64,000 nucleotides of DNA from Candidatus Micrarchaeota archaeon (GCA_016212525.1 JACRGD010000010.1:527860-591859), one strand, 5' to 3'. Shown: positions 55,379 to 55,680, numbered from the stretch's first letter. Translations and numbers: made by a program. Notes: a model not told the origin generated them from the sequence alone.

Positions 55379-55430
55379 GGAATAAAATGAGGTAAGAATT
55401 TGGGAAAAAGAGAAAACGAGAAGAAAAAAT

Positions 55431-55636
55431 TGGGCCTGTGGAGAGCCGCAGAATCTTGATCCGAAGATCGAGACTCTTTTGAATTCCGGAAACTCTTTAC
55501 GAGTTGGTTTTTGATTAAACTTTTTCCTAAAAAGTTTACTCCAGACCTACGGCTTTCCTAGGCGCTCAGTTTGTGAAAACTGAACTAGATCGTGTCGTAT
55601 AAGACCGTCGCTCTAGCCAAGCTGAGCTACAGGCCC
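55431..55636 (-). tRNA. tRNA-Ile (UAU)-like gene with a 43-nt intron at 37/38 and a 95-nt segment between the T-stem strands
   Basis: The reverse complement reads GGGCCTG-TA-GCTC/AGCTTGGCTA/GAGC-G-ACGGT-CTTATA, then the intron (55555-55597), then A-GCCGT-AGGTC-TGGAG, then 95 nt (55444-55538), then CTCCA-CAGGCCC-A. The anticodon-region BHB has central helix CUUA/UAGG and a 3' bulge of AAA. Confidence 0.65.
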
Positions 55637-55680
55637 AATCAAAAGAACTTAGCCAATAACGGTTTTTAAAATAAGAGGAA

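Follow-up and report, generated by a model that had tools for sequence, protein, structure and literature searches.

A tRNA-Ile(UAU) gene with three predicted BHB introns and a six-nucleotide T-loop micro-exon in a Candidatus Micrarchaeota archaeon

The window, a stretch of 64,000 nucleotides of DNA from a Candidatus Micrarchaeota (DPANN) archaeon, carries on its minus strand a tRNA-Ile(UAU) gene of 206 nt (55431..55636), which is resolved here into four exons and three introns. Read from 55636 to 55431, the minus strand is GGGCCUG-UA-GCUC-AGCUUGGCUA-GAGC-G-ACGGU-CUUAUA(43 nt)A-GCCGU-AGGUC-UGGAG(95 nt)CUCCA-CAGGCCC-A, giving an acceptor stem GGGCCUG/CAGGCCC, a D arm, an anticodon stem ACGGU/GCCGU and a split anticodon loop CUUAUA...A; the discriminator A73 is at 55431, and CCA is not encoded. 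The coordinates and sequences of the initial annotation are all correct on this strand, where the acceptor, D and anticodon arms lie as it described them. Exon 1 (55598..55636, minus strand) covers tRNA positions 1-37, i.e. the 5' strand of the acceptor stem, the D arm, the 5' strand of the anticodon stem and the loop bases CUUAUA. Exon 2 (55539..55554, minus strand) covers positions 38-53, with A38, the 3' strand of the anticodon stem (GCCGU), the variable loop AGGUC and the 5' strand of the T-stem (UGGAG). Exon 4 (55431..55444, minus strand) covers positions 60-73, with U60, the 3' strands of the T-stem (CUCCA) and of the acceptor stem (CAGGCCC), and A73.

Introns were sought with a BHB scan whose rule requires each strand to carry 4 nt of helix and then a 3-nt bulge, cut after its second base, with the two helix strands complementary. 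Intron 1 (55555..55597, minus strand; 43 nt; gene positions 40-82) occupies the canonical position 37/38. Its central helix CUUA/UAGG is paired at four of four positions, the bulges are UA↓C and AA↓A (arrows mark the cuts), and the anticodon stem (h = 5 bp) serves as outer helix. The scan thus reproduces the 43-nt intron, the CUUA/UAGG helix and the 3' bulge AAA that had been reported for this position. On the gene flanks, an A/T-rich, TATA-like box, TTATTTTAAAAA, is read from the sequence at 55663..55674 (minus strand), 27-38 nt upstream of the mature 5' end, and a T6 run is found at 55424..55429 (minus strand), two bases past the discriminator; these are the putative archaeal promoter and the putative transcription terminator of the gene, respectively. 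The 206-nt RNA folds better than its shuffled counterparts (z-score -7.3). At 55431-55636 no tRNA is called by ARAGORN, and the Rfam tRNA model has no match there (cmscan, gathering and E-value thresholds); both tools are blind to the architecture of this gene.

The strands of the T-stem, UGGAG (55543-55539) and CUCCA (55443-55439), are separated by the 95 nt from 55538 to 55444, as previously noted, and the elements listed for this insert are all present in it: a 10-bp hairpin UAAACUUUUU-AGG-AAAAAGUUUA, a UUCG-capped hairpin and the heptamer UUCAAAA at 55483-55477. The scan places two further introns here, around a very short exon. Intron A (55484..55538, minus strand; 55 nt) is at position 53/54, directly after G53, and has a BHB of the HBh' type, with a fully paired (4/4) central helix CUGG/CCGG, bulges AG↓U and AA↓U, and an inner helix AAACUUUUU/AAAGAGUUU (h' 10 bp). 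Its 3' end falls exactly before UUCAAA, and this 6-nt micro-exon (exon 3; 55478..55483, minus strand), bounded by the two BHBs, supplies T-loop positions 54-59. Intron B (55445..55477, minus strand; 33 nt) is at position 59/60, with bulges AA↓A and GC↓U, cuts that make U60 the first base of the last exon. Its central helix UUCA/UGCG is relaxed, with three pairs and a UxC mismatch (U-G, UxC, C-G, A-U), its inner helix is the UUCG-capped hairpin that stands between UUCAAAA and UGCGGCU, and the T-stem, formed after the removal of intron A, serves as its outer helix, for a 3-4-3 geometry. No strict 4/4 BHB was found for intron B at any alternative 5' or 3' site, including 58/59 and 60/61, by the scan and by hand enumeration. 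The 5' arm of intron A has two possible partners: the adjacent arm, with which it forms the perfect 10-bp hairpin, and the distal arm, with which it forms the inner helix of the BHB. The three segments of this alternative pairing all covary among orthologs.

Removal of the 43-nt, 55-nt and 33-nt introns in silico leaves a 75-nt RNA that ARAGORN identifies as tRNA-Ile(tat), and the spliced T-loop UUCAAAU is identical to that of an ortholog without a T-arm intron (L016, CGGAG-TTCAAAT-CTCCG). In four of 200,000 shuffles of the 95-nt insert, a first BHB ended at a UUCRA motif; both BHBs together never arose. The arrangement of introns in the T-arm is far beyond chance. One option raised in the initial annotation, two non-canonical introns around a micro-exon, is supported by the BHBs, the orthologs and the covariation described below, although not with the 7-nt exon it proposed: under the BHB cleavage rule the micro-exon is the 6-nt UUCAAA, and U60 comes from the last exon.

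Orthologs of tRNA-Ile(UAU) occur in all 24 of the genomes first sampled from the genus. A search of 40 genomes of this Micrarchaeota genus for the two-intron layout (53/54 plus 59/60), as the pattern AATTCAAAA-N18-48-TGCGGCTCT, gave a single match in each of 15 of them, and no match in the 136 other genomes of the order. Covariation was assessed in a fixed-register composite alignment (A1) of the junction regions of these 15 two-intron orthologs. The proposed helices are 86% paired, compared with 31-51% when the partners are slid by 1-3 columns, and the covariation score of 0.455 (0.195 for shuffles) was exceeded in 0 of 500 shuffles; changes on both sides were found in 12 of 22 pairs. The central helix of intron A has double changes (CCGG/CCGG, CCUG/CAGG, CUGG/ACAG), although its fourth pair is a GxA mismatch in seven of the 15 orthologs, and the inner helix of the same intron has double changes at six of eight pairs (AAACUU/AAGUUU, UCCGCC/GGCGGA, UGCGC/GCGCA and others). 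The hairpin of intron B shows changes on both sides at four of the six pairs counted, with the register kept in all 15 orthologs, while its central helix, invariant with a constant UxC mismatch, gives no covariation. The T-stem is 100% paired, and two of its five pairs covary. Intron lengths vary among the 15 (48-142 nt for A and 33-44 nt for B), the exons do not, and the micro-exon UUCAAA is invariant throughout.

Several orthologs carry one T-loop intron at 58/59 (GUUC/GGAC or GUUC/GAAC) and another, L015, carries one at 59/60 (UUCA/UGGA); all of these single-intron orthologs splice to UUCAAAU. The outgroup T-arms read GGTTCAAATCC or GGTTCGAATCC. Two orthologs, L111 (G024:C3, about 71.6-71.9 kb) and L112 (G012:C4, about 19.5-19.8 kb), have an additional, fourth BHB intron, which follows G15 in the D-loop and is 86 nt and 56 nt long, respectively; its central helix is GCUC/GAGC or GCUC/GAGU, and its inner helix has 10 bp. 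Each of these two genes has four introns and five exons. This is above the maximum stated in 2011, when archaeal tRNAs were said to carry one to at most three introns (Fujishima et al. 2011, PMC3239211); a 2026 preprint on Asgard archaea describes up to five.

We consider it highly probable, at roughly 0.85, that the gene at 55431-55636 is a single-copy, functional AUA decoder with three protein-spliced BHB introns, at 37/38, 53/54 and 59/60, and with the micro-exon UUCAAA. The closest competitor shifts the cuts around the micro-exon by one base, so that the micro-exon is the 7-nt UUCAAAA, intron B ends ...UGCGGCU and the T-loop is UUCAAAA with A60. ARAGORN also takes that product as a tRNA-Ile, the heptamers UUCAAAA and UGCGGCU are both invariant, and relaxed bulges are common in the lineage; by reading of its sequence, tRNA-Leu(CAA) of the source genome gives no 7-nt loop with strict 3-nt bulges. 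However, the 3-4-3 BHB geometry cuts after A59 and before U60, and T-loops with U60 (UUCAAAU or UUCGAAU) are found in the intron-less ortholog, in the outgroups and in all single-intron orthologs, so that the shifted cuts are quite improbable. Still less credible is a single 88-nt T-arm intron that leaves an aberrant T-loop UGCGGCU and makes UUCAAA part of the intron. UGCGGCU is indeed 7 nt long, stands directly before the 3' strand of the T-stem and is invariant in 15 species; it retains U54, C56 and R57, and ARAGORN still calls the product a tRNA. Against this, no BHB joins G53 to the 3' site (AGAU does not pair with CUGG), U55 and A58 would be lost although they are kept in every intron-less or single-intron ortholog, and the invariant UUCAAA, together with a covarying BHB that ends right before it, would be left without explanation. 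The aberrant T-loop that the initial annotation had allowed for is not supported.

The function attributed to the gene can be set against the codon usage and the tRNA complement of the source genome (G000), which is 1.47 Mb in size. In 580 long ORFs, 34.5% of the Ile codons are ATA, which corresponds to 24.8 per 1000 codons. The TiaS domain (TiaS_FLD, PF08489) is absent from the genome, while the same search matches four of four archaeal control genomes. ARAGORN with introns allowed finds tRNA-Ile(GAU) and no second UAU tRNA, and in a non-exhaustive census (259 candidates from a permissive regular expression, subsequently filtered) of a genome about 90% complete, the only CAU tRNAs are the initiator and one elongator, with no third. 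The tRNA-Ile(UAU) gene therefore appears to be the only AUA decoder in the genome, which at about 90% completeness leaves room for an unseen second one; the search for another AUA-decoding tRNA-Ile that the initial annotation had suggested yielded none. That annotation also held a UAU anticodon to be uncommon in archaea. This is true in general, but not for this lineage, where UAU is the expected AUA decoder because ARMAN-2 has a tRNA-Ile(UAU) (PMC3239211) and the source genome is without TiaS.

These data bear on the proposal, also made at the outset, that the gene is degenerate, i.e. a pseudogene whose T-arm was broken by an inserted repeat, with AUA read by other means. Standard tRNA finders do fail on the locus, and the insert does hold a repeat module known at other loci (see below). 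A broken gene would however hardly keep invariant exons and compensatory T-stem changes in 15 species whose introns diverge freely, nor be kept at one copy per genome, flanked by a TATA-like box and a T-run, in an organism where TiaS and any other UAU tRNA are absent by these searches and 34.5% of Ile codons are ATA. Given these points and the presence of the splicing enzymes, pseudogene status is very unlikely.

With regard to other tRNA genes of the source genome, Rfam finds 26 and ARAGORN with introns 33, some of the latter with wrong anticodons. A scan for acceptor and D arms recovers at least eight more (Leu-CAA, Leu-UAG, Cys-GCA, Arg-GCG, Pro-GGG, Pro-CGG, Met-CAU and Ile-UAU), most of which carry T-loop introns. 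The elongator tRNA-Met(CAU) (C8:276444-276628), missed by Rfam, has two introns, one at 37/38 and one in the T-loop; the 37/38 intron contains UGAUGA...CUGA, which resembles C/D boxes and might represent an intron-borne C/D guide.

The source genome encodes the enzymes that splicing of this kind would need. A 389-aa, three-unit ORF matches the ε2 endonuclease EndA of ARMAN-2 (PDB 4FZ2) end to end (E = 6.9e-134), and the residues aligned to Y236, H251 and K282 of 4FZ2, catalytic by mutagenesis in the ARMAN-2 protein (PMC3488258), are conserved in it. The ARMAN-2 ε2 enzyme has a broad specificity and cuts both strict and relaxed BHBs; among the introns that it cleaves in vitro are one at 59/60 in a T-loop and the one at 37/38 in ARMAN-2 pre-tRNA-Ile(UAU) (PMC3239211). 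An RtcB ligase is present as a 489-aa open frame (PF01139, E = 1.9e-167). In addition, there is a second, small splicing-endonuclease paralog of the α type, 165 aa long (C3:137688-137936; 1450-1947 of locus L127, minus strand), whose best PDB match is the α4 enzyme of M. jannaschii (1A79, E = 1.3e-11).

From the architecture of the gene, its conservation and covariation, and the enzymes present, we infer the following course of cleavage and the mature RNA it would yield. The ε2-type endonuclease would cut the precursor in each 3-nt bulge, at six sites, and RtcB would join the exons. Introns A and B would have to be removed sequentially and not simultaneously, because simultaneous cutting would free the 6-nt exon and lose it. 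Either order should be sterically possible, with the acceptor and T-stems holding the halves together; if the 53/54 intron were removed first, the T-stem would come to lie beside UUCA/UGCG and complete a full hBHBh' for the 59/60 intron. The product would be a normal 75-nt tRNA with the T-loop UUCAAAU.

Part of intron A is shared with introns of other tRNA genes. Its first 32 nt, UAAACUUUUUAGGAAAAAGUUUAAUCAAAAAC (55507..55538, minus strand), comprise the 10-bp hairpin and a CAAAAAC tail, and match at 32 of 32 positions the beginning of the tRNA-Thr(CGU) intron at 37/38, which lies on another contig of the same genome (C5:30200-30231). Close copies of this module are found in the intron of tRNA-Val(CAC), in the anticodon-loop intron of another tRNA gene (C8:99655-99686) and at one further locus; apart from those at C5:30200-30231 and C8:99655-99686, the copies of this genome lie at C5:176562-176593 and C5:114271-114302. 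Many more, of 94-100% identity, occur in tRNA introns of related genomes. The ortholog L015 carries a module copy in its 59/60 intron. The source genome also has a tRNA-Pro(GGG) gene (C8:115305-115500), missed by both Rfam and ARAGORN, with introns at 53/54 (50 nt, UCUG/CAGA) and 58/59 (37 nt, GUUC/GAAU) on either side of a 5-nt micro-exon UUCAA, and the hairpin module at the start of intron A also opens the first of these introns. Among relatives, the nearest homolog of intron A is the 53/54 intron of tRNA-Pro(GGG), with 80-83% identity over 63 nt. The shared module suggests that intron sequence has recently been exchanged, or has transposed, from one tRNA gene to another and from one intron position to another.

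The combination of 53/54 and 59/60 introns is already known from ARMAN-2 (Candidatus Micrarchaeum acidiphilum), where pre-tRNA-Pro(GGG) has T-loop introns at these positions (Fujishima et al. 2011, NAR 39:9695, PMC3239211, Fig. 1C), and tRNA-Ile(UAU) is a further example. The two cases share the phylum, the intron positions, a T-loop micro-exon, a BHB at each junction and a host with an ε2 enzyme, and the tRNA-Pro(GGG) of the source genome itself has an equivalent pair. They differ in that the gene described here is Ile(UAU) and has a third intron, at 37/38, and hence four exons; furthermore, the ARMAN-2 tRNA-Pro(GGG) is described as strict hBHBh', whereas here intron A is without an outer helix (HBh') and intron B has the UxC mismatch. 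ARMAN-2 pre-tRNA-Ile(UAU), whose 25-nt intron at 37/38 is cut by ε2 in vitro (PMC3239211, Fig. 4A; PMC3488258), is the same tRNA species with the same anticodon, a BHB intron at the canonical position and an enzyme of the same family, but it is described with the 37/38 intron only, in contrast to the two further T-loop introns here. The multi-intron tRNAs of Thermoproteales, as summarised in PMC3239211 and PMC4090602 (from Sugahara 2007/2008 and Fujishima 2010), have up to three BHB introns at non-canonical positions, relaxed BHBs, and related introns across tRNA genes attributed to intron transposition; they belong to another phylum and use an (αβ)2 endonuclease rather than ε2. A eukaryotic gene for the same tRNA species, with three introns of which one is in the T-arm, is similar in tRNA species and intron number, but its splicing machinery and intron positions differ and it has no T-loop intron pair; the resemblance is coincidental.

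That the only apparent AUA decoder of a genome is missed by both ARAGORN and Rfam means that standard annotation fails in Micrarchaeota, and because of this failure, “gaps” in the codon tables of DPANN MAGs should be checked for multi-intron genes. The known mechanism of splicing is unchanged by these findings. The 53/54 and 59/60 pair, published for tRNA-Pro(GGG), is now seen in a second tRNA as well, and in a gene that has three introns here and four in two relatives. Within one genus, the states of the orthologous T-loop range from no intron through a single one, at 58/59 or at 59/60, to the 53/54 and 59/60 pair, a clear case of fast intron turnover. The occurrence of an identical 32-nt module at different positions of different tRNAs supports the spread of introns between tRNA genes, as proposed for Thermoproteales.

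The last seven bases of intron B, UGCGGCU (55445-55451), are invariant in the 15 species, although the hairpins have diverged in sequence and length. Recognition by the endonuclease fails to explain this invariance, because other 59/60 introns of the clade end differently, for example in UGGA-AA. UGCGGCU is complementary over 7 bp to A38-A44 (AGCCGUA, 55548-55554), which includes the 3' strand of the anticodon stem, and the MFE structure of the precursor is not a cloverleaf: the intron B end GCGGCU pairs with AGCCGU and displaces the anticodon stem. As both UGCGGCU and AGCCGUA are invariant, there is no covariation between the partners, and a 7-bp complement with G-U pairs allowed is expected by chance in 200 nt. 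Nucleotides 6-13 of intron 1 (55585-55592; CGAUCUAG, in orthologs CGUUCUAG or CGUUCUAA) are likewise antisense to the 3' side of the D-loop and D-stem (55611-55618; CUAGAGCG or UUAGAGCG), with seven or eight of eight pairs in 15 of 15 orthologs when read by hand. It is conceivable, if unlikely, that such “anti-stem” segments of the introns hold the precursor in a non-cloverleaf fold and thereby impose a splicing order in which the 37/38 intron is removed only after those in the T-loop. If this were true, the fold could be a checkpoint that bars unspliced tRNA from aminoacylation. MFE and constrained folds of the precursor were discarded as evidence on splicing itself, the MFE fold being non-cloverleaf and the enforced BHB pairs giving poor energies from isolated pairs. 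Three genomes share a related conserved motif, CCUGCGG, in the second of the T-loop introns of their tRNA-Pro(GGG). Mimicry of the 3' strand of 16S rRNA helix 45 (CCGUAGG...CCUGCGG in the source genome) by the CUGCGG of the tRNA-Ile and tRNA-Pro T-loop introns was considered and rejected, the match being 6-7 nt long and CTGCGGCT occurring 69 times in the genome.
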